Below are positions 11,961-51,685 of a DNA stretch of 64,000 nt, in pieces (the stretch's first letter is position 1; each line of letters begins with the position of its first letter). The position numbers were made by a program, and so were the translations under genes. A model generated the notes under the pieces. That model was not told where the DNA came from, did not search any database, and saw only the letters and a program-made list of their open reading frames with translations. This stretch comes from Narcine bancroftii (lineage: Eukaryota), in assembly GCF_036971445.1 (NCBI RefSeq), contig NC_091470.1, positions 187,736,001-187,800,000 on the forward strand, in the 5' to 3' direction.

Positions 11961-12027
11961 CTGCTGCGAAGGACAGGCCGGTCAGCAGCAGCAGCGACAG
12001 AGCGAGCGGATAAGCGGCAGCGGCCAT
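11961..12027 (-). CDS. First coding exon (signal peptide) of an unidentified gene; B2M or MHC class I candidate; downstream exons not found in the window
   Basis: Kozak-like GGC-ATG-G; 22 codons MAAAAYPLALSLLLLTGLSFAA plus 1 nt; consensus donor CAG|GTGAGA; CpG-rich context; immune-type promoter just upstream. Confidence 0.75.
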
Positions 12028-16017: not shown

Positions 16018-17488
16018 ATATATTGGCTCCTTACAGATTTGAACCCCAGTCCCAGATTGCTGACTGCCACGCCCGCCGTCCCATTCTTTCTTTGGCAGAA
16101 GCTGTCGAGAGGAAAAGTGGGCTTCACAGGATGAGCCAGAATTTAGGTGCCCGTCCCTAACTGCCTTCTGAACCTGAGGAGTGGGTCGACCCACAATGGA
16201 GTCAGGGAGAGAGGTCTGGTATTTGGACCCTGCAAGAGAGATGTTTCCATGTCGGGACAGCAGGTGGATTGGAGGACCGATTCTGGGCAGTGGCGTACCC
16301 CATGGTTTTGATGTCCTTGTCCTTCTAGCTGGTAGAGGGGGTGGGTTTGAAAGGTGTTGTCCAAGGAGTCTCGGTGAGTTAGTGCTGTGCATCCTGTAGG
16401 AGATGGTACAGACAGCATCTACTGGGGTCGGAGTGTGCCATTATCATCTTGTAGAGTCTTCCAATGCTGGGTCATAGGCATTACTCATCTGGGCTTCGTC
16501 AGAACCAGCCAGACGAATATAAAGTCCTCAGTGAGTAATGTATGTAATAGTCGATACCGTTTACAAATCGACCCCTCCCCCCACTTTTGGCCCCAGCCTA
16601 GGCCCCAACAGCCCGCCTATCCGAGCTCTTGATGCCCCAAATGATGAAGGTGCTTGACACAGTCAAAAGTAGGATGTGTGTAATATTCAACCCCCCCTTA
16701 AATTTTACACTAAACATTTGGTCCACAAAATGTGACTATTACACGGGTCAATTACACTTGTTTGAAGATGCTGATATGCCAGCATTTAATGCCTATCCTT
16801 TTCTGCTCTCTTTCACGTACAGTTAAAAGTCAACCGAATTGGATTAATGGAGATCAATGTTATTGTACAGATCGTTCGGCCCACAAAGTCTGTGCTGACT
16901 CATTTCCATCAATTCTATTTTATTGTCCCCTGGTCTCCCAGATTCTATCCCTCACCTTCACCCCAAGGGCAACTAACGGTGGCCAATTAACCCACCCACC
17001 TGAACATCTTCGGGACGTGGGAGGATCTGGGGGGGGGGTTGGAACCCCTCATGGTCACCAGGTTAGGGGTGGTGGACAGAGAAGAAAATGGCAGCATTGC
17101 CTCTGGTGCAAGGCTGTGAAGAGAAGGGAGGGGAGAACCAGCACTCCTGTGGGGTCCAACCGTCCATTCCGACTGCCGTCAGCTCCGCACGGCCTGGAAA
17201 TAGAGTCGATGTAGAGGAGACCACAGCAGGGGATCTCTGGCCCAGGATCAATCGGGAAGTTGGGGGGGGAGGGTAGTAGTAATCAGATTGCACAGTCTCC
17301 TCCAGCTCTGGATACTCAGAGGATGGGGGCGACCACTCCCTGGTGCCACTCAAAGGTTGGGTTTGAGGAGTCCTGTCACCAGCAGGTCGATGGTAGGCCG
17401 TTGGAGCAGGATGGCAGGTGCAGTGGAGGCAAGGAGGCGGGTGTTGAATGCCGCAACGGATTGGCTTGCTCTGGTAATGTCACAGCCC

Positions 17489-17579
17489 TTACAGGGTCCT
17501 CCCGTACCTGGCTGCACACAGGGGCGCCCCCAGAGCCTGGTACCAGATCTCATTCCGCCTTCCAAACAGTCTCAGAGGG
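17489..17579 (-). CDS. SOUL/HEBP2-like gene, coding exon 6 (last)
   Basis: Acceptor ttcccatcctgcag; reads (S)PLRLFGRRNEIWYQALGAPLCAARYGRTL*, matching the SOUL C-terminal SP...RxNEVW motif; phase 2 fits the preceding exon. Confidence 0.9.
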
Positions 17580-17699
17580 CTGCAGGATGGGAAAGACAGG
17601 GCACTCAGTGAACAGCAGAAGTTCCATCCCCTCCTGGTATAGAGGGCAGCACCGGCCACCTGGTGAAGGGGTGGGTGGACTGTCCTCGTTCTTTGTCTG

Positions 17700-18625
17700 T
17701 ACTCGCACCCAAACACTTTCCAGCATACCCATCTCCTCTCCACCTCCAGCATCATGCCTCTGCATCCTTCATCCCCCTCCTGCACCCCACTTGGACCCTC
17801 CTGTACCTCCTCAAATGCTCCCATACCCCCTTGGACACTACTATTCCCCCTGACCTTCCTGCACCTTCTCGAACCCTCCTGTCCCCCCTCAGACCCTCCC
17901 ATACCCCCTTGGACCCTACCATTCCCCCCCCACTGACTCTCCTTGAACCCTCCTGTCCCCCCCTCTGAACCTCCCTCACCACCCATGAAACTCCTGCACC
18001 CTCGGACCCTCCCTCACTCTCATTGTACCCTCCTTCCCCTTATAGCCACCCACATGCCCTCGGACTCTCCTACCCACATCTTCTATACCCTCCCAGCACC
18101 CCAGACCCTCCCACCCTTCTTGGGCCCTCCCGCACCCCCATGGACACTCCCACCCTACACCATTCCGTTCCCAGAGGACCCTCCACCATCCTGCACCCAC
18201 AGACCCTCCAACACCCACTTGGACCCTCCTGTCCCCTTGCTCTCTGCCCCTCCCCCAGCTCTCACCCCCCCCCCACTCTCCTGCCCAACCCCCCTGGAAC
18301 CTCCTGTATATACCCCTCTACCCTCCTGCACCCCCACAGAACCTCCCTCGAACCCTTGGACCCTCCTCCAAACCCTCCATCCCCCCCCCAACAGGACCCT
18401 CCCGCCACCTCTCGTAGCCTCACGCCACCTCTCGTAGCCTCACGCCACCCCCTCAGATGTTCCTGGACCCCAGCGTACCTTCCTGCACCACCGGAAACTC
18501 CCGCAATCTCCGTGAATCCTCCCGAAACACCCTCGGCCCCTCCCCAGCCCCCTCTTGTAATGTCGTTTCAACACCACCAGCGCCAATCCTCCCCCCCACC
18601 CCCCGCCCGCCCTATACCCCTCCTC
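17700..18625. repeat. C-rich (G-rich on the sense strand) low-complexity intronic tract
   Basis: Degenerate CCCTCCTGCACCCC and GGACCCTCC units filling most of the last SOUL intron. Confidence 0.8.
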
Positions 18626-18628
18626 CAC

Positions 18629-18786
18629 CTGCTGTACTCAGCGACGTAGAAACGATCTCGCAGGAAGCTCTCTCTCTGCCGGAGCAGGTCCTCGAACAAC
18701 TCCTGCGCCTTGCGCTCAAGGCGGAAGAGCAAAGCGCCCGCTGGCCGAACGAACAGGACCTGTCCGGGAGCATGGCTCAGGTACAC
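18629..18786 (-). CDS. SOUL/HEBP2-like gene, coding exon 5
   Basis: Acceptor ccttctgcag; VYLSHAPGQVLFVRPAGALLFRLERKAQELFEDLLRQRESFLRDRFYVAEYS aligns with the HEBP2 segment VFIEDR..TVFVRSF...VYYTAGYN; 158 nt; weak donor AG|GTGGAG. Confidence 0.88.
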
Positions 18787-19264
18787 CTGCAGAAGGATAG
18801 CAGCTAGTGTAAGTGTGTGAGGGTCTCTGTTCAGAGGGGCGGGCTTTCTCAGGGTGGGTTGGGAGCTGTAGTTTGACATACCAGTGGAGCGGTCGGTGGG
18901 CGAAATGATGGGGGTACCCCGGCCTGGGAATATCGCAGATCCCGACTCCAGGGGAAATGGGGACGAGCAAAGTGGGGTGCCAGGGGTGAAGACTCCCGGC
19001 ATGGGGGGGGGGGGGGAAAGGAAGGTCTGCGTGGATCTGGGTCGAACCGGGTGTGCAGGGTGAGTGTGCGGTGGGCTCCAGATGTGCAGGGAGGCTCTGG
19101 GGTAAGCTCCAGTTGTGGAAGGAGGGGCTGGGTGGATTTCAGCTGAGGAAGGAGGGGCTGAGATGATCAGGAGTGGAGAGAGGTAGGGTCTGGGGGTAGG
19201 GGTCTAAACATGAAGGGAGAAGCGGTGAACTGTGGATTTTGGAGGGTCATGTGGGGTCTTCATC

Positions 19265-19700
19265 TGGAACCTGGTGGAGTGTGGGTCGTGGAGGGCGATG
19301 TGACCTCTCCGCCTGGTAACTGGTGGGAGTGTGGGTCATGGAGGGTCACGTGACCTCTCCGCCTGGAACCTGGTGCGAGTGTAGGTCGTGGAGGGCACGT
19401 GACCTCTCCGCCTGGTAACTGGTGGGAGTGTGGGTCATGGAGGGCGATGTGACCTCTCCGCCTGGTAACTGGTGGGAGTGTGGGTCATGGAGGGTCACGT
19501 GACCTCTCCGCCTGGAACCTGGTGCGAGTGTAGGTCGTGGAGGGCACGTGACCTCTCCGCCTGGTAACTGGTGGGAGTGTGGGTCATGGAGGACCACGTG
19601 AGCTCTCCGACTAGAACCTGGTACGAGTGTGGGTCGAGGAGGGTCACGTCACCTCTCCGTCTGGAACGTGGTGGGAGTGAGGATCGTGGAGGCTCATGTA
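19265..19700. repeat. 49-50-bp minisatellite, about 8-9 units, with higher-order structure
   Basis: TGACCTCTCCGCCTGG recurs at 19301, 19351, 19400, 19450, 19500 and 19549. Confidence 0.93.
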
Positions 19701-21029
19701 ACCTCTCTGCCAGGGACCTCCTGGGAAGTCGAATCACCCTCCGATCAGGGGCACAGTGCTAATATTTTAGGTGCTGGAGCTCACCAGAAATGATCAAATA
19801 TCCTCATGTTATTAGGGGCATTCTCCCCTCTCACCACAGCCAGAACCCCCTCTACAACTCCCACCCAAACACCCGCTTCTGTAAAATCCCCAGTCCTCAG
19901 AGTCGGCGTCAGAATAAATCTAATAGAGGGGCATTAGGGTAACTGTGGGGCGGTGGGGGGGGGGGGCGTGGGCACAGGTGTATCTACTCAAAATAACGGT
20001 GACAAGGCGGTACCTTGGTGGCCATCAATTTGAATTTAGCGTTGTATAATTGAAAGCGAACGGTATGATGAGTGTGGAAGAAGCAGGTTCCTTGTATGTC
20101 CAGAATAGTGTTCAGCGAGCGTGGATGGGGGGGGAGAAAGACCCTGACCCTGCCTGTATTTAATATGTGGCCACTGTTAAATTCCCCACTTATTTATTTT
20201 GCCTTTTTCTTTAATAAATGGAGGCGCCAGCGCTCCGCACCCTCCTGCGCCAATCAAGATTGGACTCTAGCCACTTGACCACTGGCCCCTTTAATCACTC
20301 ACTGATTATCTCGTCCCCATCTTACTGCAGTTTAAAAGACCACCACATGCCGCCAATCTGATCACGTCTAATGAGGGCTGTTCCATGCCAGGCCGTGGAA
20401 AGGTAAGGTGGTAAGGTGTGCACTACACTGAGAGTGGAACCGTAGTATTGTATGGGAATACTTGGCGTTGAACTGTACTCCAGAGGTACAGGGAAATCGG
20501 GAGTGTATGTTAAAGTCCCTGTCTTGTAAGAGTGTGTTAGTTACCAGATATTTCTGCACAAGTGAGGGAGGACTGTGTCCGATGTGAATGCCTATCACAG
20601 TTTTAGTTGCTCTGTTTCTTCCCTGTGATCATCCCTTGTTTGTTAGCTGGACTCACTTATCTGTGAACCCAATTTAAATCTCACGGAACAGGTTGGGACA
20701 CACTGGAAGCGGAAAGAGGTCATCTCCAGCTCGAGAGAGTGTCTGAATTGGGCTCCAGATGTGGAGGGAGGAGTCGTCCTGATCTCCAGCTGCAGAGGCC
20801 AGAGAGGGCGCGCTCCAGATGTGTGGAGAGGGAAATGTGCCAGGACCCCCCCCCCTCCCCAAAACGGCCAGCATCAAGGTCAGGATCGAACCCAGGTCCT
20901 TGGTGTTGTGAGGCGGTGTTTGGCGTGGGGAGGGAGTGGTGGGGGGGGGGGGAGAGAGAGAGGAATCTGGGGATGGTAGGGAGGAAGGCAACCCTAGGTC
21001 CCGGGCATCCACTGGAAGAATATACTCAC

Positions 21030-21163
21030 GAGCTCGTCCCGGGGAAGCGGAGGGTTTAAAAGAAACCGTCTGGGCAGCAAGAAGAAAACAGCCATCGGCC
21101 TGGGGTCACCATTGAGGCTCGTGTAGAGGGTCAGGATGGGTGCCGTCCGCTCAATCTGTATTC
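21030..21163 (-). CDS. SOUL/HEBP2-like gene, coding exon 4
   Basis: Acceptor ctgattcctcag, donor GTGAGT; (G)IQIERTAPILTLYTSLNGDPRPMAVFFLLPRRFLLNPPLPRDEL matches the SOUL MTAPV...FxLP...PPxPxD motif; 134 nt. Confidence 0.9.
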
Positions 21164-22412
21164 CTGAGGAATCAGGAGTGAATTCTTAGGAATAAGTATC
21201 TCCAGTGACCTGATCTGCACCAAGGACGTTTCCTTGGTTAAGAAAGCTTCAAAGTCTCCGCTTTCTCAGAAGACAAGGGAGATTCGGCATGTCTCGCCAC
21301 TCTGTCCAAATGCCAGAGGCTTGAAACGGCCTGTTAAAGGATCTGACAGCACTGGCATCACTCTGGGGCGGGGGGGGGGGGTGGAGGGTGCGGACCGCAC
21401 CGGGTGACTCCATCAGTCAGGGTGACACCACAATGACTGTAAAATTTCTGTTCAGTGTTTTGGCAGAAATGTATTATTTTTTATAAAAATATCCCTGTTG
21501 TTCGTTATAACAACAAAAACATTTTTCGTCAGCCCAGTTCCATGCATCAAGACTAAAACTCAAGGCTCATTTATGTTTTGAACCTCCGGTCAGAGCGGTC
21601 ATCACAAGCCAATGACGATGACGTTTTGAATCATGGGGGTTTCCGTCTGCGCACAAAAATCAGCAAACGCTGTGTTTTTGTTGCTGCTGGGATTTTTACA
21701 GTCGCTGCTTTTGACACATTTTCTAGTGTTTTAGCGACATTAGTATTTGGGAACCGAGATCACTAACTTTTTTGAGTTCTGAGTGGGACCTAGCCCACTT
21801 CAGGGCACAGGCTCTGATTTTATTTCTTGTGATCACGCAGCAGCCTTGCCTCTGCTCGAGCACCCCTCCTGCGACGTCATGCTCCCACTCTGGCCAATGA
21901 GTGATCCCTCTTCTCGCTAATCATTGTTTCTTTGTCATCTTTCTTTGGGCACCCTCATTCTTTCTCCCTCTCTTTCCAACTTCTTAATTGTTCCCGCTGC
22001 TGCACGGTTGGTCAAATCCCTTGGCCGCTTTGATGACTTTTCACTTAAAGCTGTCTTCATTTCGCTGGAGGCTCCATGATGACACCCACCTGCCGGTCAC
22101 ACCAGCTCAGTTCACACGCGTGTTTTTTTCTTGTGGGGGGGGGGGAATCATCTTCTGCACCCGATATAAGATGAAACCGTGAAATTCAGGCTGAGAGTGG
22201 GGACCTGTTTTATCTGAAGGTCAACTTATACTCCAAAATATATACCATCACCTCGTCTCTTTGTTCTACAACACTCCCAGGGTCCTACCAGTCACTGTGT
22301 ACATGCCCGGGTTAACCTACCAAGGTGCAGCATTACTCTTGTTCAAGTTCAATTCCATCCGCCATTGCAGAGCCCACTTTCTCAGTGCATCTCAATCCTG
22401 TTGTAATCGCAG

Positions 22413-23270
22413 TGTTACGAGCCCAGAGGACCCCAAACCCCAGCAGCAATAGACAAATGGTAACTTAAACAAAAGTTGTTTTCAATTATCTTTAAACATG
22501 AAAATAGAATCACACTTCAACTTAACTCTATTAACTTAACTAACCTAACTTAATCCCCTTCTAATTCTAAGCGCGTGTATGTAATGTGTGTGTGTAAGTT
22601 CAGAAAAGTTCTTTGGTTCACAGTCCAATCTCACTTCTCATTCCTCCAAGTCACTGGTTGCAGGCAATTCTTATACTATGCACACAATTTAACCTTTAGA
22701 AAGTTCACCAGACTTTGGTGCTTGAAAGGTAAATGGTTACCGCTCAGGAAGGTTCTTGTCAGTTTTCAGAGAGAGATTTGTTGTTCCAGGACATCCACAG
22801 TAGATTCCTTTTTAATCAGTCACTCCAGTGTCTTGCTGAAGAAACTTGCCCCCTCAGGGTTCTCCAGATGATTACCTCTTTCTTTCAGGTCACCACAGAG
22901 TGCTTTTTTTGTTTCTCTTATTCCATGTGAAACGTTAGGTAGCCAGTCCTCTCCTCTTGAATGAACCACAAGGGCATTGACCAGGCTGAACAAAGCACTT
23001 ACAAACCCATCTTCCAAATGGGGCTTTCCCCAAGCTTGCCAGCTTGTCCTGTTCCAGTCCCAGTTGCTGTTGCTGGCTGTAACACTGTAAAAGTGATCTC
23101 CGTCTGTCTCTCAGAAAAAGCCTGTTTGACTCTCTCTGCTTACAAAATCACATGACCCTCTTCAAACAACTCCAGACAATCTGCAGCTCCAATGAGATAT
23201 TTCATCTGTTGCCTTTTGTAAACAACAATCCTCTAGTGAAGTCTCTTGGGCACTCTCCAAAGCTCTGCCT
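22413..23270 (+). mobile_element. Solo LTR of the TGTTACGAGCCC family; 3' end not resolved
   Basis: Starts TGTTACGAGCCCAGAGGACCCC and is collinear with the 27320 copy. Confidence 0.78.
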
Positions 23271-25629
23271 TGGCCGTGGCTGGAAAACGTCTGGCATTAT
23301 CTTGGACAGTGGAAATGAGATCTTGTATTCCACTGGAAAAGATAACATATAATTTCCCTAATAATTATCCCTTTTTTGTTAAAACCTGGAGCCCGTATGT
23401 GGAATATGTGCAATTAAATTATTAATTCTTTTTCACCATGCATTGGTGGTGGTGCCCCAAACCATGCAAATTATGAAAGGGTGTTATGTTACTTCATCTC
23501 TTAATTTTCTTTCTTTTTTGAGGTGGTTTAGAGGGGTGTTGGGGTTTGTAAAGGGTTAAAATCCTATGTCTGTATTTTATTATTAAATAAATTTTTCAAA
23601 AGGACTCTGACTTTGTACATTGATTTTTTTTTTCTTTTCTCTGTAATGCACAGATGATTTTCACATTTATTAGTTTACACAGGGTACAGTTTTATTTGCA
23701 CTACTAAGAAGTGGTTATTCTACCTCGCCCTGCAGGAAAAAGGAACGCGACGTCACGTATGTAATTCTTCCAAGAAATCTGAATCCTGGCTGTATGACAG
23801 ATTCCTGGCTGGATCTATAAATACGGTGAAGGCTAATCGAGTCAACGCTTGCCTGTCAGCATTGGGCTCAACGTGGGAGCTGCCGTTTGCCTTGCCGCCC
23901 CACGGAATAAGTGCCTGGCCAGTCTCCCTCTGCACACCCTGAGCTTGGAGGGTGTCCAGGGGCCGAATGACTAAGCACCGGATGGAAACAGAGAATAAAG
24001 GTTAAGGAGCTAAAATAGAACTTCTGAGGGAATCGGAGAAACATGGAGACAGGGGTTGACTTATTGGTTGAAGGGTAATAGTAAGCTGCCGTCTGGTACT
24101 GTATTGAGAGGGGTTTATATACAGGTGTCCTGGAGTGATTTTTTATATTTAGACATACTGCACGGTGACAAGCCTCTTTGGACCACGGGTCCGTGCCGCC
24201 CAATTCACACCCCATTAACCAACACCCCCAGTACGTTTTGGAGGGTGGGATGACTCCGGAGGTTCCCCCCCTCCGGGGAAAACCGGCGGAGACACGAGAA
24301 GAACGTACAAACACCTCGCAGACAAGTCAGGAGTTTGTAAACTCCTTACACCGCGGGATCCCGATCGCTGGCGCTGTCGGGGGGCGGGGGCGCCAGAATG
24401 AATGTCAGGTGGGGCATTAGCGTGCTGGGTGGGATGCTGTTAACTTAGGTGACGAGAGCACTGCTCTTACGGCGTCAAGCATTAACAGACGCCGGGGTGC
24501 GGGTGGCATGCTATTGAAGGTGGGGGGGGGGGGGGGGGGGGGGGGGGGGGGCGGGGGGGGAGGATCTGACGGCGAGCGATGGCACCTGTTCCCTGACAGG
24601 TATTTGGGGTCACGTAGAGAGAATTTGGTGTGGTCAAATTTGCAGTACTCTGGGCAGTTTTGGTCACCTAACTCCAGGAAGGAAATGAATAAGATTGAAC
24701 GAGTGCAGAGATTATAGAATGTAATAGAACAGAACGTGTAATATTACACGAAATTGCCCCCTGTCTCCCATAAGTCAAAGAGACTTATGTTGCCCGGTGC
24801 CCCTTACAGTAAGAGAGAAGCAAAAGAGAGTCCCTTCAGAGGGACTGAGCGTGCATGGATTCGTCTCCAGCGTCCCCGCGGCTTCTGTAGACCCCCCTGT
24901 TCGATCCATCGATGACCCAAGCTTCAGATCCGAACGGGAGGTCTTCAGCCGCCCGATGCCCTTCTTGCCATCCTCTGGAATCCCGTTACCCCGGGTCACG
25001 CAAAGTCAAGTCGGCCTCCACCTGCGGGGGTCCCTCAGCTGCTGAGCCCCCGCCTCACCTTCCCCGTTGGGTCGCACCCCCCCCCCCCCCCGCTTCTCCG
25101 TGGTGGTGGGAGGGGGGATTCTCCCCGTTTATGGTGCCCCCCCCCCCCGGAGCTTACGACGACCCCCACCCTCGTGGCCTCTGTCGAGCACAGGCGCCGC
25201 CACCTTGGGAGCGGACCCCGCGGTGGTAGGGTTTTACTGACAAGCACCGTCGGCCCCTCCAACGGTAAAACCCGTGCAGAGCTTTTTTGGGGAAACCTTT
25301 GGAGCAGCGCCGCGTCTCCGTTCTCCCGGGGCCACAACAGCGTTGCCATTTTGTGTAAGTTGTGCGAATGCAATAGATTGTTCGCAAAAGAACCCTTCTC
25401 ACGGCACAAGGTGAAATAGGAGCTGGAGTCAGCCATCCTGCTCCGCTGCTCGGAGATCACAGGTCGTGGTCCACCTCCCTGTCTCCCCCCGCCACCCAAC
25501 TCTCTGTCATGAGGCAGTCTCCACGGCTTCCCTGTGCAGAGAATTCCACCTCTTTCCAGGGAAAAGCACTTTCTCCTCATCTCAGTCCTGAATCTACTCC
25601 CTGGAATTTTGACCTGAGGTCCCCAAGAT

Positions 25630-26000
25630 CAGAGGTTCTTAACCCTTCTCTTTCCACTTACGTCCCACTTTAAATCATCCCTCTGCCATTGGGTGCGGTG
25701 TGATTAGTAAGGGATTGCTTAAGGAGGGATGTAGGTGGGAAGGGAAGGTTGAGAACCACGACTCAATCCAATTGTTACTGAAATATTTTGCTGGAGAAAA
25801 ATGGTCATTGGCCTATTTCCTCTGGAGCGATGAAACCGTGCACATAGCGAGTCAATGAGGGACGATTAAAGCAGTAGCCTCCAAACTTTTTCTTTCCACC
25901 CACTTAAGTAAACAATCCCTTACTGATCACAGAGCATCGATGGCAGAGGGAAAACTTAAAGTGGGATGTGAGTGGAAAGTTAAAGGTTGAGAACCACTGG
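25630..26000. mobile_element. Non-autonomous hAT-like MITE (CAGTGGTTCTCAACC family)
   Basis: Inverted ends resembling CAGTGGTTCTCAACC; related pieces at 40580-40878, 47081-47135 and 49430-49520. Confidence 0.6.
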
Positions 26001-26634
26001 ACTAGATCTTGTCTCACCTGCCAGTGCAAAAAAAATCTTTCTTTCTTTGGCTTGGCTTCGCGGACGAAGATTTATGGAGGGGGTAAAAAGTCCACGTCAG
26101 CTGCAGGCTCGTTTGTGGCTGACAAGTCCGATGCGGGACAGGCAGACACGATTGCAGCGGTTGCAGGGGAAAATTGGTTGGTTGGGGTTGGGTTTTTCCT
26201 CCTTTGCCTTTTGTCAGTGAGGTGGGCTCTGCGGTCTTCTTCAAAGGAGGTTGCTGCCCGCCAAACTGTGAGGCGCCAAGATGCACGGTTTGAGGCGTTA
26301 TCAGCCCACTGGCGGTGGTCAATGTGGCAGGCACCAAGAAAAATAGACTGTACTCAACGTGCGCACGTAAACAAACAAAGAACTGGAAACAGGTAATGAA
26401 TGCAAACCCTTCCCCACCCCCGCCACCGTCCAGAACATCTACGGGGAACACTGCCTGTCGGAGGGCAGCAGCGAACACCAAGGACCCTCGCCACCCAGCG
26501 GACGCTCTGTTCTCGCTGTTGCCCTCGGGAAAGGGGTGTAGGTGCCTCCACCAGGTTCAGGAGCAAGCAGCACCCCCTCCACCTCATCGACAAACTCAAT
26601 CAGGGACTCCTTTAAGGGACTCTTACTTTTAAAA

Positions 26635-28840
26635 AAAACTTTATTTATTAAACAGCAGTTAAAATACAAATATAGAACAAAGTATAACGATAACACAAAA
26701 TCTTCTCCCTCTCCCCCCTCCTATTCCCTCTCTCCCAACCTCTACCCCACCCCCCCAAAAATATAATAATAAGTGGAGTTAAAATACATATTTATCGGTA
26801 TTTTAATGCCAAGGATGTCGCAAATCCCATCTAACAAAAGCCGTCATATTTCCAAACCTGCACATTTCAAATACGGATTCCACATTGTAATAAAGAAAGA
26901 ATAATTATTATACACATTATAAGTGATCTTTTTCAGACGATTACAAATTCTCAATTCAATATGCCATTTTTGCATATTTAATTCAATATCATTCTTCCAT
27001 GTAATTGCTATACATTTCCTAGCAACTGCTAAAGCCAAACGAATAAATGCCATTTCAAATTTGTTTAATTTTAAACCCAAAGTCAACGTTGTGGTACATC
27101 CCAATAAAAATAAAAACAGATAAGGGTTAGTTTAAATTTGAATAAACCTTCCAAAAGCTCCATAATTCTATACCAAAAAGTCTTTACCTTTTCGCAAAGC
27201 CAAACTGAGTGCAAAAAAGTACCTAGTTCTCTTCCACATCTGAAACATACATCTGAAGAACTAAAACTTTTAACTTCTCGGGAGTTAAATACAATTGGTG
27301 TAAAAAGTTATAATGAACCTGTTACGAGCCCAAAGGACCCCAAAACCCAGCAGCAATAGATATTCACCATGACGAGTAATTACTTAAACAAAAGTTTTTA
27401 ATGATCTTTAAACATGACAACAGAATCAAAATTTAACTTATCCCTATTAACTTAACTAACCCAACTTAACCCCCTTCTAATTCTAAGCGCACGTGTGTGT
27501 AAATGTAAGAAAAGTTCTTTGGTTCACAGTTCAATCTCACTTCTCATTCTTCCAAGTTCACTGGTTGCAGGCAATTCTTATACTGTGCACAGAATTTAAC
27601 ATTTATAAAGTTCACCAGGCTTTGGTGCTCGAAAGGTAAATGGTTACCGCTCATGAAGGTTCTTGTGGGTTTGCAGAGAGGGATGTGTGGTTCCAGGATT
27701 TCCACTGAGGTACCACCATTAGTCACCTCAATGTCTTGCTGATGAAACTTGCCCCATCAGGGTTCTCCAGATGATAACCTCTGTTTCTGTTCGACTTATT
27801 CCAAGAGAAACGTCAGGCAGATAGCACTTCCAGCCATCCGCCACTCTGGAGCTTCTGTTTCCATTCCAACAAGCTTCTCCTGGCTTGTTACAGCTTTGTG
27901 TGTCATACACAGTCAAAGACTTCCATCTGTCTCTCACTCTTTGTCTGAGATTCAAACTCCCAGCAGCATGTCCTTCTCTCTCTCACTTACAAAACCCCTG
28001 ACCTTCTCCAGCAAAAAATAGGAGTTAGTCTCCTGCTCCCATCTGTTGTTTTAGGTAAACAAGAACCTCTCAATGACCTCTGACTGAGCACTTTGCAGAG
28101 AGGTCAAAAGCCTTGCAAAATGGTCCAAAACAGACAACCTGACACTGGTTGTTCTTCCAAGTCAATGATCTATTCATTTCATGACATCATTTCAATTAGC
28201 ACCTACTTGTGAAATGTCCATAGCATTCTCCATAGTTTCTGTAAAGTCACTGAATATGAATACTTCAGTATTTCAAATAAGATCTGTTTTAAAGTGTGTG
28301 TATGTATGTAATTTACTCTAATTCTACCAATTTATATCCCAAAAGGATTCCCAAATATTCCATCACAAACCAAACTGTATCTCACATTAATTAATCTAGA
28401 CATACTGTCCTCACACATAGTCCTCCACTCCTCCTGAGATATTGGAATAGATAAATCATTCTCCTGTTTAATTTTCATTTTATACAAATCATCTTCTTTT
28501 GCAATAGACCATACATTTCTGAAATAAAACCTTTTTTAAAACTCCATCAGTTAATAAGCATTAACACTTAGATCTTTTAGGTAATTTTAATTCATGCCCT
28601 AAATTATCTAATAACCAAGTACGTATTTGATAACATGCAAACAATGTATTTGACATAATCCCAAACTTTTCCTTTAATCTATTAAATGATAGAAACAATC
28701 CTTTTTCATAACAATCTCCTACTAATCTAATACCCTTCTATTCCCACAATATCAAATGATAATTATTCACTGAGAAAGAAAATAATTTATTCTGACATAT
28801 TGGGATATTAACCAAAATTGTAACTTTAATTCCCATAATT
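26635..28840 (-). mobile_element. Older L1-like 3' fragment, interrupted by a solo LTR
   Basis: RLALAVARKCIAITWK...KKITY is homologous to the ORF2 C-terminus of the full-length copies. Confidence 0.75.
27320..28367 (+). mobile_element. Solo LTR (1048 bp) with 4-bp TSD
   Basis: TGTTAC...TCACA ends; AACC at 27316-27319 and 28368-28371. Confidence 0.88.
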
Positions 28841-29086
28841 TGATCCCTGGTATGCCATATTTAAGGCCTCTTACTTGTGCACTTTCTTTGCTCTCCCTGT
28901 ATCGCTTAGTCAGTTTTTATACATTTGTTATCTGTTTACAGTTCTTTGTTTATATGTTCACGCTGTGTACAATTTATTTTTTGCGCTACCAATTAGTAGT
29001 CATTGTGCCGGGTCCGCTGGAGAAAAGTATCTCAGGGTTGTGTATGGACTCTGACGATATCTAAGTTGCACTCCATTCTGGCTTAC

Positions 29087-29198
29087 CTGGTCTATTCTTC
29101 TTGTTAAAGTATTCCGTCAGACGAGCCTTGGCACGGTATCTCCCTTCCGTGTGCAGAACGTGTGTGCCCACCCAAAGGCTGGGTTCAGAATCCCGAGT
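29087..29198 (-). CDS. SOUL/HEBP2-like gene, coding exon 3
   Basis: Acceptor cctccctcacag, donor CAG|GTAAGC; TRDSEPSLWVGTHVLHTEGRYRAKARLTEYFNKKNRP corresponds to SOUL xRxY..xWVST...LxxYIxGxN; 112 nt. Confidence 0.88.
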
Positions 29199-29759
29199 CT
29201 GTGAGGGAGGCAAGGGGAGATTTTCAAATGGTCGACTTGGAGTCAGCGCTGCTCCCCGCCCACCAGCGGGGAGGCTCTCGATTGGCACTTCTCCCAAACC
29301 CGAGGGATTTGGATCTCACCCCCTCCTCCCCACCATGGGCCTGGCCAAGGGGAAGGCTGGGAGACGAAGCTTCAATTTCCAGAGGGCTGGAGGACCCAGC
29401 TCAAAGACTGCAGATGTTGGAATCTGAAGGAAAGGGGTGGCCCAGTTAGTGCAGCACCAGTGATCGGAACGGGGGTTCGAATCCCGTGCCGTGCCGTCTC
29501 AAAGGAGTGCGTGTATTCTTCCCGTGTCTGCATGGGTTTCCGCCAGGTGCTCCGGTTTCCTCTCACTATTCAAACAAAATACAGGGATTGAAGGTCATTT
29601 GGGTGAAAATTGGACGGCATGGGCACAAGGGCCAAAAAGGCTGTTATCTAAATTTAAATAAGTGCTGGAAGAACTCAACAAGTTGACCAGCATCTGTGGA
29701 GAAAAAGGGATGGGTGACATTTGGCATTAAAACCCCGCATCAGGGCTGAGGGTCTAGAG

Positions 29760-30540
29760 CAGGGGTGTCAAACTCAAATTCACAGAGGGCCAAAATTAAA
29801 AACTTGGACTAAGTTGTGGGCCAAACTAAATATTTATTGAAAATTTTCAACAACATCTGCATGTTTTCTCTTCTTTCAACATATGTAATGTTAAACTTTT
29901 TGTTATTAAAATAAATGTTTAATAATAGTTTTGGTTAAACTCTTTCCAGAAGAAGCATTAACAAATGAGAAATAAAATATTCAATAAATAATATTTCTCT
30001 ATACCTTTAAGCTCCTTTTAAATGTATTTTTTTTCACAAGCCAACAAGTCAAAAAAATAACAACTTGCTTCAATGAAAATCCAATCTTTCAACTATGAAC
30101 AGTCCAAAGTTAACCAAAGAAAATATTAATCCAAGCTTAGCTTGCTACACTGTAATTTACTCTGATGCACCTGGGTCTAAACCAGATACTTGGCATCTCT
30201 TAGATGCAAGTTCATCAAACTCTGGGGTCAGAGTTTGCCTCCCACCTGTCTTGAAAATTCCTGTTTTCTGTCTTTCGTTTGGCCATTTTTCGTAAGGGGT
30301 TTATTACATGTGAGTTGGGCGACAGGTCGCAGATACTAATGAAAGTAAAGAGAGGAGGTGGGGGCGATTAGCGGGCTGACGGGCCGGTGCCAATGCATTT
30401 GCAAAGCATTCTGGGATTTGTAGTATTAGCTGTACTGGCGCAGCGGGCCAGCTCTAATACATATTTGATATGATCTTGCGGGCCAAACATAATTATATCA
30501 CGGGCCAAATTTGGCCGCGGGCCTGAGTTTGACATGTGTG
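29760..30540. mobile_element. hAT-Charlie-type non-autonomous DNA transposon
   Basis: TIRs CAGGGGTGTCAAACTCA and TGAGTTTGACATGTGTG; perfect 8-bp TSD GTCTAGAG at 29752-29759 and 30541-30548. Confidence 0.88.
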
Positions 30541-30939
30541 GTCTAGAGGGTCAACATATAGTAACGAGGAGGTGGTGTGAGGCAGGGGTTGGGAGGTGGG
30601 ATCAGGTGAGGAGATGAAGCTAGGTGGAGAGGCTGGAGACGGGGGCTGGCAGGCGATAGGGAGAATTATCGAAGGGAGGGACAGGTGGAACCAAGCCGGG
30701 CACAGTTGGGAAGGAATGGGAAGGAATGGGAAGAGGGTCATATCTGGGAAAAGAAGTTACAGGGGGCCACAGCTGCGAAGTAGAATACATCTGGTAGGGG
30801 GGAGCAGCTCGAAAGGGAGGGAAGGGGAGGGTGCCACAGCCCGAGAGGGAAGGGAGGGGGGAACAGCCCGAGAGGGAGGGGAGCTGGGCCTCAGCTTGAG
30901 AAGGGGGGGGCTGCAACCTGAGTAGAGGGGGTGCAGCCG

Positions 30940-31450
30940 GGCAGCTCATGAAATGATGTGAGAATAACAACCTGAGTCTCAATGTGGACAAGATGAAGGA
31001 GATGATCGTGGACTTCAGGAGGACCAGGAACTATGACCCATCACAAACACACAACTCTGCAGCAGAGAGAGTGGAGAGCGCCAATTTCCTTGGAGTTCAC
31101 TTCATTAGTGACCTATCGTTGACATTAAATATCCCTTCACTTGCTGAGAAGACTGATGGCGGGCAAGGCTACCAGCCACCATCATCTCAACCTTCTACAG
31201 GGGCTCTATCAAGTGTGTCCTTCCCGGCTGCATCACAGTATGGTGCAGAGAAATGGATCGGAGGTCAATCCACAGGACCAGAAGAGCGGCAGAGAGGATC
31301 GCTGGGGTCTGACTCCCCCTCATCGACGTGATCATTGTCCAAAGATAACTCAAAAAGACCCCTTCCATGCCAGGAAAGAGATACAGGACCAGCACCACCA
31401 GGCTGAGGAACAGCTTCTTCCCACGGGCAGTGAGAATGCTGAACGGATGA
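30940..31450 (+). mobile_element. Rex1/Babar-like LINE 3' fragment
   Basis: NNLSLNVDKMKEMIVDFRR and SFFPRAVRMLN motifs. Confidence 0.7.
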
Positions 31451-31627
31451 TCCTCCGAGACAACTATTTCTTTAACCATAATATTTTAATATTTGTATGT
31501 ACATACTGAGCAAGCGCGTCGCTTGTCCGTGTGCATGTTAGCAGTGTGTTGCACCGAGGACCGGAGAACACTGTTTCATCGGTTTGCACGGTCAATGAAC
31601 TTGAAGTTGGTCCTGGAGCCCACTTAC

Positions 31628-31706
31628 CTCGTACTCCGAGTCCCGGCAGACGGTGATGTAGGACAAACACTCAGAAGCATCAGTGCAGGTGGACGGTGTC
31701 CGACTC
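31628..31706 (-). CDS. SOUL/HEBP2-like gene, coding exon 2
   Basis: Acceptor tctcccacag, donor GAG|GTAAGT; (W)SRTPSTCTDASECLSYITVCRDSEYE; 79 nt; phases fit both neighbouring exons. Confidence 0.88.
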
Positions 31707-33894
31707 CTGTGGGAGATAACGGATCTGTTGGCGTGAGAGCTGGGGAGGCTCTCCGAGTCGTGCAGTTGGGGTCAGCCGAGGGAAGGTTGGACCAGAGAGG
31801 ATTTGGGCTGGGGCAAGGTTTAACGTTGAGGGGGTGAAGGGAACGGGGGATGTGAGGAGTGACAGATCTCCCCAGGGGGAAAGGGATGGTCCGTGGGGGG
31901 AGGGGGGGGGAGTGGGGTTGGAGATAGGGTCGGCATCTGCGCGCGGGAATTCCCAGCAATCAGAACGGTTAGGGCACTGTGCCAGAGCAATCGATCCGGG
32001 TTTGAATTCCAGCGCTGTCCGTATGGAGTTTGTACGTTCTCCCTGCATCTGCGTGGGTTTCCTCCCACCCTTCAAAACATACGGGGTTGTAGGTTGGCAG
32101 GGGTATTGGATGGCAGGAGTAGTGGTTGGCAGGGGTAGTGGGTGGCAGGGGCTCGTTTGTCTAATTTATATTTATAATTAATTATAACTGGAGAAGGGGC
32201 TTTCAAGCAAGTGCCTGGCTGTTCCTTCTCTGTGAAGTGAAACACGAAACGCCTTCTTCAAGCGAAGAACAGAAAGGCGTCAGAGACTGGCCAGGGGGAG
32301 GAGTCCAGACCAACAAAAGGTGTTAATTGGATCAGGTAAGAGGAGCGGTGAGAATTGATTTTGGCTCTGGGAGACAGCGGGAAAGGGGAAGAAAGAGAAA
32401 GAGGGCTGGCGAAAAGGCGATGGGGGAAGAAGGGGAGAGGGGTCGGTGATAATGCCGTCCGGTTGGAGGGTGTCCAGACGGAAGACGAGGGGTTGTTCTT
32501 TCAATCGGGGGTGGCTGGCAGTGCGTGAGACTACGGACAGAAACGCAGCGAAGGGAATGGGACGGGGAATTGAAACGGATGGCCCATTTTGGACGCAGCC
32601 GAGGAGCTCAGCGAAGCCTGTCCCCAGCCACTCTGACTTAGAGGGTCAACATATAGTTGCGGGAGCAGCGAGCGACCCCCCCCCCCCCCACCCCCACCAG
32701 ATTCGTGTGAAGAACTGGTTTGGGAGCCCCAGACTCGAGTGAGGAAGGAGGTGGTGGGCGCAAATGGAGCATCTCCTGCAATTGACGGAGAGAGGCGTCA
32801 AGGAACTGATTGGTGGGGAGGGAGGAGTGAACAAGGGAGTCACGGAGGGAGTGGTCCATGCGGAAAGTGGAGCAGGGATACGAGCGGAAGATACATCTAA
32901 TTATGGGACCACATAGTTCTCTACAGACGATGCCTGACATGCTGAGTATTTCCTGTTCCTGCAGCCACTTAGATCTTCAAACAGGACAGGGGGGGGGGGG
33001 GGGTGGGGGCATGGGGGATGGGCGGAGAATAACCGGCGGGACTTGGGGGGAGTGGGATGGAACTGAGATTTATCAGGAGCTAGTATGGAGAGGAGAGGCG
33101 AATGGCTTCCTCTTGCATGGTGTAATTTTTATTTGATAATTCCATCTCCCGACTTTGCACTTCTGCCTGAAGAGGAAAGGATGGGGGTGGAGGCAGGTCT
33201 GCCTGGAGAGGGAAGGGTGGGAACAGCTATGTCTGGAGAGAGAAGGTTGTGGGGGGCAGCTCTGTATGAAGGGGGTGGGGAGCTGAAGAAAAGGAAGGTT
33301 AGGGAAGGAGAGCGTCTCGGGCGGGGGAGTGAGGGGAGGGTTCACGGCAGCTGGCGAAGCCGTGCTGTTGGTGACTCGTTGGTGGGGGCCCAGATGGGCG
33401 AGGTTGTGCAGCCGGGGTGATGTGAACCCTTGCTTCTCCAGTCACTGGGAACAGGCAGGGAGTCAGCCCCTCACCTCACTGCCTTAAACAAGGCAGTAAA
33501 TAATTATACAGATCGAAAATAGTCTCTTAGCTGTTTCTGTTAACGGATTATACAAGGAGTTAATCGTACGTGCATTATATTAAAACATGCCAATACACTT
33601 TTATTAGCCATGCGAGGGTGGCTGCGCTGAAGTCAATGAGGTTTAACTGGCTATACCGACCCGCGATTCCGCGCCGCCCAATTTACACCCCACTAACCTA
33701 CACCCCACCAGTACGTTTCGAGCCGTGGGAAGAAACCGGACCCCCCCCCCGGGAAAACCCACACAGGCACGGGGAGAACGAACCAACTCCTGACAAATAG
33801 CGCGGGATTCGAACCCCAGGACCCGGTCGCTGGCGTTTTAAGGGTGCAAACATCGCCCCCCCCCCACCGTGAGGGGATGGCGTCAGTCACCTAC

Positions 33895-33953
33895 CATTGA
33901 GCCGAGACCCCCTGACACAAGAGGTGAAGGGCCAGCGGCAGCAGTGGGAGCAT
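33895..33953 (-). CDS. SOUL/HEBP2-like gene, coding exon 1 (signal peptide)
   Basis: ACG-ATG start; MLPLLPLALHLLCQGVSAQ(W); donor TG|GTAGGT; upstream pyrimidine tract/acceptor; the six exons sum to 633 nt, i.e. 210 aa plus stop. Confidence 0.85.
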
Positions 33954-34192
33954 CGTGCCAACCGTTATGCGTCGCTGAGCACTGGTGGGGGGCTTGGAGA
34001 GAGAGAGCGAGAGAGAGGTGATGGACTAGTCCCCAGTCCGCAGCGGCCGTTCCCCGCCCCCACCTCACCCAGCCCCTGGGGAAACGGTTGGGGCATGAGC
34101 GCGGTCCCCCGCCCAGGAACCTGCCCTTTCCCTCCCCCACCCCCAGCCCAGCCCAGACCGGCCTCGCCCCCACCCCCTCGGCGCAGACTTAC

Positions 34193-34245
34193 TGCGGTGC
34201 GCTGCACTCCGCAGCCGGTCTCCGGGGTGCTCCACTTATACCGGC
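34193..34245 (-). promoter_or_regulatory. Putative TATA promoter and short non-coding first exon of the SOUL-like gene
   Basis: TATAAG at 34240-34235, followed about 45 nt downstream by the donor GCA|GTAAGT (34192). Confidence 0.6.
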
Positions 34246-47775: not shown

Positions 47776-48238
47776 CTAAAGATTCATGTAGATCCTCAGA
47801 TCCTTCTCCCATGCTCTCGCCCTCGCGTCCCTCCTGAGCTCCTCCCGCCTGCTGACCGTAGCCGCCTTCTCCGTGCGACGGGCAGCAGTCCTCGGCTGCC
47901 GCACTGCTTCAGAGTCATTGGCCTGGAAGTGAGTGACCTTTGGCTTCGGGTTCCTCTGGAAGCCCAAGCCCTTCTGGTCTCTCTTCAGCACCGTCCCAAC
48001 AGGGAACTTTCTCCCCTTCCCATCTGGGCCGAGGCCTGCCCCCCTGTCCCAACCATCTTTCAGCATGATCTGGAACCCGACGTTGCTTTCGGGAATGAAG
48101 TAATGCGTCGGTGGCGGCAGCTCATCGTTCTTGCTGAGTAAGTGCAGCATTGACCTCTCATGCTGTTCAATGGTATCCTCCAGGTATTCCAGTCTGCACA
48201 GCTGGCAGAACTTCTTGTGTGGAGGCCTCTCTTTGCAG
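47776..48238 (-). CDS. GPANK1: G patch domain and ankyrin repeats 1, last coding exon (CxxC...HxxxxxH finger and G-patch)
   Basis: Acceptor ttctgtgatag; FCQLCRLEYLEDTIEQHERSMLHLLS; G-patch NVGFQIMLKDGWDRGAGLGPDGKGRKFPV...GLGF; ends WEKDLRIYMNL*. Confidence 0.95.
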
Positions 48239-48394
48239 CTATCACAGAATCAGAAGTATTACAAATTAATGTCATGAAATTCATTCTTTTGTGGCAGCAT
48301 CACAGCGCAAACATTTCTATGAACCGCATTACAAATAAGTAAAAAATAGTGCAAGGTAAAAGATAGTGTCTAAGGGTCATTCAGCGGGGAAGAA

Positions 48395-48845
48395 GCTGTC
48401 CTTGTGTCGCTGAGTGCTCAACTTCAGGCTCCTGTACCTTTTCCCTGATGGTAGCAGAGTGAAGAGGGGGTGGGGATCCTTTAAGGATAGAGGCTGCTTT
48501 TTTAAGACACCGCCTCTCGGAGATGTCCTTGATGGAGTGAAGTCTGGTGCCTGTGATGTTGCAGGCCGAGTTAACATCCCTCTGGAGATTTTTCCTGGCC
48601 TGAGCATTGGCACCTCCACACCACAGTGATGTAACCAGCTAGAATGCTCTCCACAGTCCACCTGTAGAAGCCTTCGAGAGTCTTCGGTGGTGTACCGAAT
48701 CTCCTCAGAACTCTTCACAAAGTACAGCTGCTGGCGAGCCTTCTTCACGATTGCATCGGCTTGGAGGCTCCAGGACAGGCCCTTGGAGACGTGGACACCC
48801 AGGAATTTGAAGTTCTTGACTCTCTCCGCTGCTGAGCCCTCAATG
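48395..48845 (-). mobile_element. Rex1/Babar-like LINE 3' fragment in the GPANK1 intron
   Basis: VKNFKFLGVH, KKARQQLYF and HPLFTLLPSGKRYRSL...SFFP motifs. Confidence 0.75.
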
Positions 48846-49832
48846 AGAGAGAGAGAGTAGTTACAGCAGCATCTGTTACAGGAGTCACTGGAGAATACCA
48901 GAGAGCTGTGAACTCGACCAGCGACATCACAGTCACCAGTCTTCACTTCATCGAGGTCATCTACAAGAGGCATAGACCATTGCAATTGCTCTGCGAGGTA
49001 CTGAGGCTGAGCCATCAAGAAGAAAAACATCTGTAACTGCTTTTTGCCAGGAAGAGAAATATCTGATTAATTGCCTGGAAAGGACGTGGTTCCAACGGCT
49101 AGAGACAACGACTTGATGTTCGGCTAACTGCTAAGAATAATGTGCAAGACCAACTACACACTTGTTTGTTATGGTGTACAAATATTTGCCTTGTTACCCT
49201 GGATGCGCACTTGGGTCTGGAATCCTGAACCATTGTTCGGTCTCCTGTGCCCAAATACGACAGCTGTTGCAGAAAATCTGGACTTGGGTGAGCGTGACAG
49301 GTATTGCGGCAGTATAAAAAGGGAACAAAGTTCCTGCTTAACAATGGCTGACCTAATTCAATTCTCCCTATCCCAGGTATCACCCCCCCGCCTGAAAAAA
49401 ATTAAAAGACCCTGCCTCCACCCTCTTCCCTCAGCAATCCCTTACTAATCACAGAGCACCGATGGCAGAGGAAATACTTAAAGTGGGATGTGAGTGGGAA
49501 GAAAAGTTTGAAAACCTCTCTCCTAGAATCTTCCACAAGAGATAACACACCCTCCACATCAAGAGAGGGGTATGCAAGGTTATGGGGTGGGTGTGGGTCA
49601 TTGGGACTAGGTGGTGTTCAGCATGGACTTGGAAAGGCCAAACTGGCTGTAAATGTTATATGGTTACATCTCTCAGGACATTATCAATTTTAATCATTCC
49701 TCAATTAGAACATAAAACATTAAAGCACAGAACAGGCCCTTCGGCCCTCGATGTTGTGCTGACCTATATACAAAAAGTACTAAAGCCTTCCAGCCTTGTA
49801 ACGCTCTATTTTTTCTATGCCCAAGAGACTCT

Positions 49833-50569
49833 TGTGACAGAGTATTTTGAAGTGTTTTGGGAGGAAATGTTAGAGCATACAAACATTTTAAAAACACAGA
49901 ATTTTTGGAGGACTTTTGCAGAGTGCTTTTTGCAAGAGGCAACAAAGTATGGACAGCAGCTTGCCTGGGAGAGCATGTGACCTTTGCAGGCAGAGGAAGA
50001 ACAGTTTTGCTCTCAGAGAGGGAGGGAGTGAAACAGAGAGGAGAGACAGAAATCAGTTCCAGAAACTTTGGAAGGCTGCCTGGCCAAAGGAGGAGATTGG
50101 CAGTGTGAAGGGTGACCTGAAAGAAAGAAGATCATCTGGAGAATCCTGAAGGGGGCAAGTTTCGTCAGTAAGCCTGATTGGAAAGGAATCAGTTGCGGAT
50201 GTCCTGGAAAAGGAATCTCTCTCTCTGAAAACCAGCAAGAACCTTCCTGAGTGGTAACTATATGCCTGTTAAACACCAAAGCCTGGTGAACTTCGTTAAT
50301 GCTAACTTCTGTGCACAGAACAAGAATTGCCTGCAACCAGTGAGATTGGACAGTGATCCAAAGAACTTTTCTCATCTTAAATATACATTACATACACCCG
50401 TGCTTAGTATTAGAGTGGGGGGGGGGGGCGGGGGGATTAAGTAGGTTGGGTAGGTTAAGTAAGTTGATAGTAATAACTTTAATTCTGTTTTCTTGTTCAA
50501 ATATATACCCCTGGGTTGTGGTGCATCTCTATTGCTGCTGGTTTTTGGGGTCCTCTGGTCTCCGTAACA
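49833..50569 (-). mobile_element. Solo LTR (737 bp) with 4-bp TSD, inserted in a CR1 3' end
   Basis: TGTGAC...GTAACA ends; CTCT at 49829-49832 and 50570-50573; CR1 sequence resumes on both sides (49705-49832 and 50570-51110). Confidence 0.88.
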
Positions 50570-51125
50570 CTCTTAAAATCCCCTAATGTTTCAGCCTCCA
50601 CCACCACCACCCCTGGCAAGGCATTCCTGGCACCCACAATCCTCTCCGTTAAAAAAAAAACTTACTCCTGACGTCTCACCTAAATTTTTCTCCACTTTGC
50701 AGAGATGTCCCCTGGTGTTTGCTACTCCTGCCCAGGGGAAAAAAAAAGTGCTGGCTGTCCACCTTATCGATGACTCTCGTAATCTTGTAGACCTCAATTA
50801 AGTCTCCTCTCATCCTTCTTTGCTCCAGAGAGAAAAGTCCTAGCTTTCCTCACCTTGCCTCATAAGACTTATTTTCCAATCCATGCAACATCCTGGTGAA
50901 TCGCCTCTGCCCCCTCTCCACAGCTTCCACATCCTTCCTATAATGAAGTGACCAGAACTGAACACAATACTCTAAAAGTGTGGTCTTACCAGAGATTTCT
51001 AGTTGCAACATGACCTCTCAACTCTTGAACTGTATTCCCCTATTAATGAAGCCTAATATCCCATAGACTTTCTTAACTCTCCTGTCAATTTGCACGGCCA
51101 CCTTGAAGGAAGCAATGATTCATAC

Positions 51126-51685
51126 CTCTGTTCTTCCTCTGGGCAAGTGTGATATTCCTCCAGGACAGCGACAATTTCCCCATGGCCAGCCTGTCGGGCC
51201 AAATCCAGGGCATCCCGACCAGAGGAATCACACACTCCAATCCACGCAGCCCCGAGGCTCAGCAAGTACCTCACCACCTCCAGTTGGCCGCTGCATGCTG
51301 CGCACATGGTAGCAGTCCAGTAGTAACTGTCCCGGAAATTTATGTCGCACACTCCCGTCTCCAGTAACCTCTGGACCATCTTCAGGTCCCCATTCTGAGC
51401 AGATCTCAGCAACACGTGTCCATTTCTCTCCCCTCCTTCTGGGACTTGACGCCTGCTGGGACCCTTCCTCCTTGCCCTCCCGCTCGCAGCCTTGGGTTTA
51501 CAGACTGAACTGGTGCTGGCCTCGCTGCTCGAACCAAGGAGGCTCTCGTAGAAATTCTTTGCCTGCTCGCCATCTAAGCCTCCCTCTCTGGGGCAGGGAA
51601 TGGGGGCTTTCCGCCATTCACCATTTTTCCAGGGGTCAGCGTCCTCGACTGCACGAGTAAAACTGATTAGATGCCCGTAGCTCAT
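51126..51685 (-). CDS. GPANK1: G patch domain and ankyrin repeats 1, first coding exon (ankyrin repeats)
   Basis: MSYGHLISFTRA..DPWKNG resembles the mammalian N-terminus; LLRSAQNGDL and INFRDSYYWTATMCAACSGQLEVVRYLL; donor AG|GTATGA, phase 2; spliced product 340 aa. Confidence 0.95.

Follow-up and report, generated by a model that had tools for sequence, protein, structure and literature searches.

The vertebrate SOUL proteins that have been studied are a cytosolic mammalian pair, HEBP1 (p22HBP) and HEBP2 (SOUL), and the ligand of the family is unsettled, though most of the homologs that we found look secreted. p22HBP is described as cytosolic (PMC6321638). The SOUL fold has eight antiparallel strands and two helices (PMC3174058). 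Heme is described as sitting in a hydrophobic cleft that a helix and the beta8-beta9 loop flank (PMC7006542), and p22HBP binds heme through hydrophobic contacts, without metal coordination (PMC3174058). Human SOUL gave no hemin binding by ultraviolet spectroscopy (UV), nuclear magnetic resonance (NMR) or crystallography (PMC3174058). His42 is the reported heme ligand of mouse SOUL (PMC6321638); its role is disputed (PMC3174058). Here we describe a SOUL-family gene of the ray Narcine bancroftii. It lies on the minus strand, from 33953 to 17489, of a 64,000-nucleotide stretch of contig NC_091470.1 (the window).

Secreted SOULs have been published from tomato (SlHBP2; PMC10663603) and Physalia (bioRxiv 10.64898/2026.08.01.742136). 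In both, a secreted SOUL domain acts outside cells. The heparin binding of the Physalia venom proteins and the antimicrobial activity of the apoplastic tomato protein are precedents and a model for an anionic ligand, from independent lineages. Physalia has 39 SOUL copies. Unlike that expanding toxin family, the ray gene has one copy in the window and conserved orthologs.

The mammalian proteins share the modelled fold of the ray protein and match its sequence (E 3e-11 to 1e-9), and the RNE.W motif is common to both. They are 20-24% identical to it, and the ray protein has no equivalent of His42. Where HEBP1 has Met on helix 1, Narcine has K70 and T74. Closer in design are the vertebrate four-cysteine SOULs of lamprey (XP_032815012.1), chimaera (XP_007909114.2), teleosts (as 'heme-binding protein 2'), Pogona (XP_072844073.2) and turtle. 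These share a signal-peptide-like N-terminus and C27, C33, C40 and C202. Most of them keep F70 (18 of 23 rows), F/Y74 (17 of 23), G79 (20 of 23) and M89 (18 of 23), whereas the window gene does not.

The closest records are elasmobranch RefSeq entries named heme-binding protein 1-like or 2-like. One is identical to the ray protein (XP_069771445.1), and those of sawfish (XP_051899650.1) and white shark (XP_041069181.1) are direct orthologs. Their names are automatic only, and 'heme-binding protein' is probably misleading. The passages searched in the main text of PMC10751288, a study that covers the sawfish major histocompatibility complex (MHC), do not mention heme or HEBP. The literature searched, which took in few subscription journals, holds no description of the elasmobranch clade, its secretion or its substitutions. 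The gene is already annotated, and a likely sawfish ortholog is in a published table; what is unusual is a conserved patch that is altered across the clade.

Family, export and relatives

The gene contains 633 nt of coding sequence in six exons, for 210 aa and a stop. The translation is identical to XP_069771445.1 (P0001), which RefSeq calls 'heme-binding protein 1-like' of Narcine bancroftii, and exon 5 used as a query returned that single protein. The Pfam SOUL profile (PF04832) matched residues 32-194 at profile positions 2-172 of 173 (E 3.2e-26; 92.8 bits, cut-off 27). Searching the window by tblastn with five orthologs recovered exons 2-6 and found no second copy of the gene. Because of the RefSeq identity, the Pfam match and the tblastn recovery, the gene is not a chance reading. 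It is real, intact and already annotated. A preliminary description of the window had proposed an intact SOUL-family gene with six exons, GT-AG ends, matching phases and 210 aa. Cutting these exons from the window, the RefSeq identity and the profile search agree with it. It had also called the gene hidden, which the RefSeq record contradicts.

Nine solved structures matched by sequence with E < 1e-9, all of them HEBP2 or HEBP1. An AlphaFold2 model built from 121 sequences had a predicted local distance difference test score (pLDDT) of 89.6 and a predicted template modeling score (pTM) of 0.83. It was used instead of a model from 10 sequences (pLDDT 38.5). Foldseek ranks 1-10 were all SOUL or HEBP1, including heme-bound 7oon, with template modeling (TM) scores by target of 0.71-0.83. 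VIA-align placed the model on human SOUL (3r8j) with a Z of 20.2 and a root mean square deviation of 2.6 over 166 residues. Membership of the SOUL/HBP family is firm, both by profile and by modelled fold. Next in the structural ranking came GyrI-like small-molecule binders (SbmC, BmrR, EcmrR and CtaZ), which are bacterial, have the same fold (Z 9.6-13.4) and are 8-15% identical. The common fold shows no function.

The signal peptide was assessed from hydropathy and ortholog conservation. Residues 1-15 are the sole long hydrophobic stretch, and exon 1 encodes just the signal-peptide segment. The predicted cleavage site has small residues at -3 and -1. A18 is present in 10/10 aligned orthologs and Q19 in 9/10, and the signal pattern is kept in 9/10. 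Neither a transmembrane stretch nor an endoplasmic reticulum (ER) retention tail was seen in the 210-aa protein. Cleavage after Ala18 and secretion are thus predicted and very likely.

The mature chain contains C27, C33, C40 and C202; C13 lies within the signal peptide. Of 110 homologs, 14 have C40 together with C202, 89 have neither and 7 have one without the other. Because the cysteines co-occur across homologs, disulfides C27-C33 (widespread) and C40-C202 (vertebrate) are likely. The preliminary description had proposed a signal peptide and four mature-chain cysteines resembling those of fish paralogues. The first holds as a prediction, and the second is seen in the ortholog and homolog alignments.

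A hydrophobic N-terminus was found in 79/106 homologs, a count with a bias that is set out below. It occurs in 67/75 homologs with the C27 and C33 pair vs 12/31 without it. The set held homologs of 170-340 aa with >80% cover and a Met start, one per 50% cluster plus the query; eight close orthologs or cluster members were left out. Even with that bias and the relatedness of its members, the set shows that the secreted type is common. The preliminary description had set the signal peptide against the intracellular mammalian proteins; the idea that a secreted SOUL is exceptional is not supported, and the tomato and Physalia proteins had already been published.

Orthologs are present in 12 other sharks and rays. 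Nine were found by search (52-69% identity), and three further species came from a cluster look-up. The elasmobranch clade is supported at 99/99 and 100/100 in two smaller trees that used 6 of the 13 elasmobranch rows. Its stem is 0.96-1.38 changes per column and its inner branches are short. A quick 75-row tree with 10 elasmobranch rows agrees. Outside the clade, lamprey, chimaera, manta, teleosts, lizards and turtles supply the nearest relatives, which are SOULs of the four-cysteine type at about 28-34% identity. Frog and marsupial HEBP2 rows fall outside the four-cysteine group, and the elasmobranch clade does not group with them, in trees without an identified HEBP1 row. Sharks and rays carry at least one separate, ordinary four-cysteine copy (e.g., Mobula P0017), so the window gene is a paralog of the ordinary type. 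No mammalian four-cysteine member was among the named matches of these searches, which were not exhaustive.

Other family members were seen along the way. A further chondrichthyan four-cysteine paralog (Callorhinchus P0033 and Chiloscyllium P0133) has a long insertion in the last loop of the domain, which is rich in Arg, Gly, Gln and Asn in the chimaera. It is sister to the clade of the window gene (97/93), possibly through long-branch attraction. P0011-P0014 (P0011 from amphioxus) and similar proteins are 770-1650 aa long and carry three to seven SOUL domains in tandem after a signal-peptide-like start. A salmonid four-cysteine SOUL (the cluster of Salmo P0016) has a mucin-like tail of ~110 residues rich in Pro, Thr and Ser.

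The altered patch and its possible ligand

Positions were counted in one alignment of 111 other family homologs and 13 elasmobranch orthologs. Position 70 is F or Y in 99/111 family members vs 0/13 elasmobranchs, which have V, I or K. Position 74 is F or Y in 95/111 vs 0/13 (R in eight, K in two, and T, S and A). At position 79, the G of 102/111 is found in 0/13 (K in ten, R in two, and Q). Position 89 is M in 98/111 of the family and R in 13/13 elasmobranchs. The F at position 111 (102/111) is kept in 2/13, V93 is also variable in elasmobranchs, and the I of the family at position 77 is F in elasmobranchs. The structural core is kept in all 13 (L73, Y76, N81, P92, P122, P124, Y179, R188, N190, E191 and W193). 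In the model, positions 70-77 lie on helix 1 and positions 89-111 on the next two strands. HEBP1 has Met at the places aligned with positions 70, 74 and 89. The position of mouse SOUL His42 is D49 in Narcine, and none of the 10 orthologs has His there (they have D, A, F, T or S). The stretch 159-164 does not vary among 10/10 orthologs but does in other homologs. The domain contains 15-27 Arg in the elasmobranch clade vs 5-9 in teleost, lamprey and HEBP2 rows; lizards are also Arg-rich.

Sharks and rays replaced conserved hydrophobic residues around the likely cleft, which argues for a polar or anionic partner instead of heme. The gene would have been born by duplication within the vertebrate four-cysteine SOULs. 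It would have changed fast before the split of sharks and rays and been conserved afterwards. The protein would be exported, lose its signal peptide and fold as a SOUL monomer braced by two disulfides. A cleft lined with polar and basic residues would then take an anionic extracellular ligand. We give an even chance to the reading that the product is an exported, disulfide-braced SOUL that binds a polar or anionic extracellular ligand, not heme, in a refitted cleft. That the usual hydrophobic porphyrin binding has been lost is, from the substitutions, somewhat probable. That the ligand is anionic (e.g., a glycosaminoglycan, an acidic lipid or a microbial surface polymer) is a more tentative suggestion. 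The preliminary description had suggested an extracellular tetrapyrrole- or ligand-binding role. Tetrapyrrole binding is doubtful because the His42 position is Asp and the helix-1 hydrophobic positions are replaced in all 13; extracellular ligand binding in general is plausible.

Several points weigh against a polar or anionic ligand in a refitted cleft. The 13 orthologs represent one evolutionary event. Position 74 of Narcine is Thr, not basic. The net charge of the SOUL domain is positive in 9/10 orthologs, but in Stegostoma it is -2. Basic charge is also not unique, as lamprey (+3), chimaera (+6) and Pogona (+4) have it too, and the Arg richness may come partly from GC content (0.70 at third codon positions). 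Because lizards are Arg-rich, other members are basic and third-position GC is 0.70, charge alone is weak evidence. We presume from p22HBP studies and the location on helix 1 that positions 70, 74 and 89 contact heme or line the cleft. The N-terminus counts are biased, since the homologs were found with a query bearing a signal peptide, and their Fisher test ignores relatedness. The vertebrate four-cysteine grouping, at 98/98 with all columns, has 71/66 on residues 43-195, without the cysteine columns and the ends. Tomato HBP2 is secreted, yet it bound hemin-agarose (PMC10663603).

The hemin binding of that secreted protein also speaks for an extracellular heme or porphyrin scavenger. Such a protein would grip the propionates with basic residues, and its V/I70, F77 and beta8-beta9 loop would stack on the ring. 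The fold is closest to HEBP1 and SOUL, heme-bound 7oon included. Hydrophobic residues are retained in the loop that precedes the RNE.W motif, where R184 of Narcine is matched by a Lys in HEBP1. In zebrafish, soul5 is induced together with genes of heme metabolism (PMC12561580). We nevertheless consider a scavenger doubtful, as the aromatic residues at 70 and 74 and Met89 are lost in 13/13 and the His42 position holds D, A, F, T or S. Even human SOUL is without hemin binding by the three methods named above.

It is unlikely that the product is a secreted or luminal protein-binding module without a small ligand. In such a module the clade-specific surfaces of helix 1 and 159-164 would dock onto a receptor or another protein, perhaps next to tapasin in the secretory pathway. 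The lack of an ER-retention tail argues against it, and being neighbours is not in itself a sign of interaction. In sawfish, 1.9 kb separate the gene from the tapasin-like gene on the same strand, but its locus is ~16 Mb from the class Ia/II core (PMC10751288). The reedfish MHC chromosome table names no heme-binding or soul gene. The invariance of residues 159-164 does fit a binding surface, and mammalian SOUL binds ALG-2. It is very improbable that the gene is a duplicate in decay, without function, or an artefact of annotation. Narcine and the batoids have extra departures (K70, S50, A144 and A146), and one contig holds a likely non-coding splice form. However, the frame is open over six exons, a contig is spliced, the core residues are kept and orthologs exist in the 12 other species.

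A more specific version of the anionic-ligand reading is that this MHC-linked, secreted, Arg-refitted SOUL traded porphyrin binding for anionic surfaces (heparan sulfate, lipopolysaccharide or acidic lipids) and serves innate defence in plasma or mucus. We consider this quite unlikely.

Gene structure and transcripts

Features of the gene and its nearest neighbours in the window.
Feature	Position	Strand	Remarks
Coding exon 1, 59 nt	33895..33953	-	Start codon; encodes residues 1-19 with the predicted signal peptide, for which a cut after Ala18 is predicted, so that Gln19 remains
Coding exon 2, 79 nt	31628..31706	-	C27, C33, C40; tblastn with orthologs
Coding exon 3, 112 nt	29087..29198	-	Strands and helix 1 (65-77); altered positions 70, 74, 77, 79; tblastn
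Coding exon 4, 134 nt	21030..21163	-	R89 where the family has Met; proline-rich loop; alone Pfam SOUL E 0.041
Coding exon 5, 158 nt	18629..18786	-	Helix 2; spliced to exon 6 in X1 contig 1
Coding exon 6, 91 nt	17489..17579	-	Conserved RNE.W motif, C202, stop
3' untranslated region (UTR)	16638..17488	-	At least to 16638; one contig extends beyond 16500; AATAAA 16924, ATTAAA 16790
Intron-4 segment	18882..19345 (at least)	-	Spliced to exon 5 in the same X1 contig via a 95-nt GT-AG intron
Possible short non-coding first exon with GTAAGT donor, and TATA-like motif	34193..34245	-	Putative; 34245 is the end coordinate of the preliminary description
GPANK1	47776..51697	-	Ankyrin exon 51053-51697 (Pfam Ank_2 E 1.9e-13); G-patch exon 47776-48249 (E 1.7e-12)
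Next gene downstream, signal-peptide-like first exon, phase-1 donor	11961..12027	-	Place where sawfish has tapasin-like; candidate only

The exons are bounded by AG acceptors and GT donors throughout, with end phases 2,0,1,0,2. A second AG, 8 nt downstream at the exon-4 acceptor (21155), breaks the frame and was rejected; only 21163 works. In Pfam and PDB searches with single exons, which are short, only exon 4 matched, weakly, to SOUL.

One contig of public run X1 joins exon 5 to exon 6, and three other contigs end at the exon-6 acceptor. At least one of the five coding junctions (exon 5-exon 6) is thus directly joined among the contigs listed. The match of an X2 contig begins at 21162 and 71 of its letters map elsewhere, which hints at the joint of exons 3 and 4. 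The bin 17702-18302 in intron 5 has a depth of 0-0.55 vs 9-29 across exon 6 and the 3' UTR, a pattern seen in 4/4 runs. These runs come from one study, none is recorded as RNA, their RNA status is a guess, and they are not independent if they are the runs behind the RefSeq model, as is possible. Of the transcript support sought for the splice junctions, one contig of such a run supplies that for exons 5 and 6; for exons 3 and 4 there is only the hint.

The splice form with the intron-4 segment contains an in-frame stop and no Met afterwards. It is likely non-coding, or else it may use an internal start. A tandem repeat at ~19290-19720 adjoins the segment. A purine-rich stretch ending in a TATA-like motif occurs twice, at 34079-34266 and 35307-35482, as inverted copies pointing apart (81% identity over ~190 nt). 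It is a candidate for a duplicated promoter of two divergent genes, or it may be a small repeat. A fragment of a long interspersed nuclear element (LINE)-like element lies in intron 3 (~26650-28800). It is similar to two long, frameshifted elements on the minus strand at 800-10500 and 41100-46900, which contain endonuclease- and reverse-transcriptase-like open reading frames (ORFs), as judged by eye.

MHC linkage and significance

GPANK1 lies 14-18 kb upstream of the SOUL gene on the same strand. Synteny beyond the window was taken from the published supplement table of PMC10751288. The order on the sawfish MHC chromosome is vps52, gpank1, an unknown gene, SLAMF9-like, heme-binding protein 2-like, tapasin-like, NELFE, SKIV2L and C2/Bf (PMC10751288). 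The heme-binding protein 2-like gene is LOC127585936, three genes from gpank1; its block is at 0.9 Mb, and class II and Ia are at 16.7-17.8 Mb (PMC10751288). In white shark, gpank1, vps52 and TAPBP lie within 0.9 Mb with unnamed loci between them (PMC10751288). The window order fits the sawfish order, except that the SLAM exon was not found. The GPANK1 domains and the sawfish table bear out the MHC-like neighbourhood that had been proposed for the gene.

Of the 86 ORFs listed for 34.4-41.1 kb, 48 were searched against Pfam together with 13 others (61 in total). These searches gave no domain of the immunoglobulin or SLAM kind, and neither tapasin nor VPS52 was detected. Within 34500-41100, where sawfish has SLAMF9-like, a minus-strand ORF (35663-35980) has a YYC motif at its end, and two pieces of the plus strand, at ~36650-36760 and 38110-38245, look like exons. 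Plus-strand stretches near 56800 and 60390 are ones that we take to resemble VPS52 exons; Pfam, PDB and Atlas look-ups gave no confirmation. Under this presumed label, the stretches at 53500-60500 (+) and GPANK1 are arranged head to head, which is also the arrangement in sawfish and white shark. An N gap of 302 nt is at 53750-54051. A candidate second exon for the gene at 11961-12027 returned nothing usable from Pfam or Atlas. For CSNK2B, the human neighbour of GPANK1, a motif scan of the window found nothing.

Because the reedfish table names no such gene, the MHC linkage may be limited to elasmobranchs. The parts searched of the supplement text of two amphibian MHC studies gave no match, for GPANK either. 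A proto-MHC ohnolog origin, from a HEBP1-like gene on reedfish chr12 with tapasin-related genes, was dropped, as they are >20 Mb apart. The simplest account of the MHC position is that the gene belongs to the framework, and nothing supports a functional tie to antigen presentation.

If the innate-defence reading were true, the SOUL fold would have been recruited to extracellular defence three times independently: in Physalia, in tomato and now, for the first time, in a vertebrate. With a defensive role, the oldest MHC would also count a non-immunoglobulin innate gene among its members. As a single conserved paralog of sharks and rays with an altered patch, the gene offers a natural experiment into the binding partner of that patch, and the ordinary sister paralog, present in these animals too, is a ready control.

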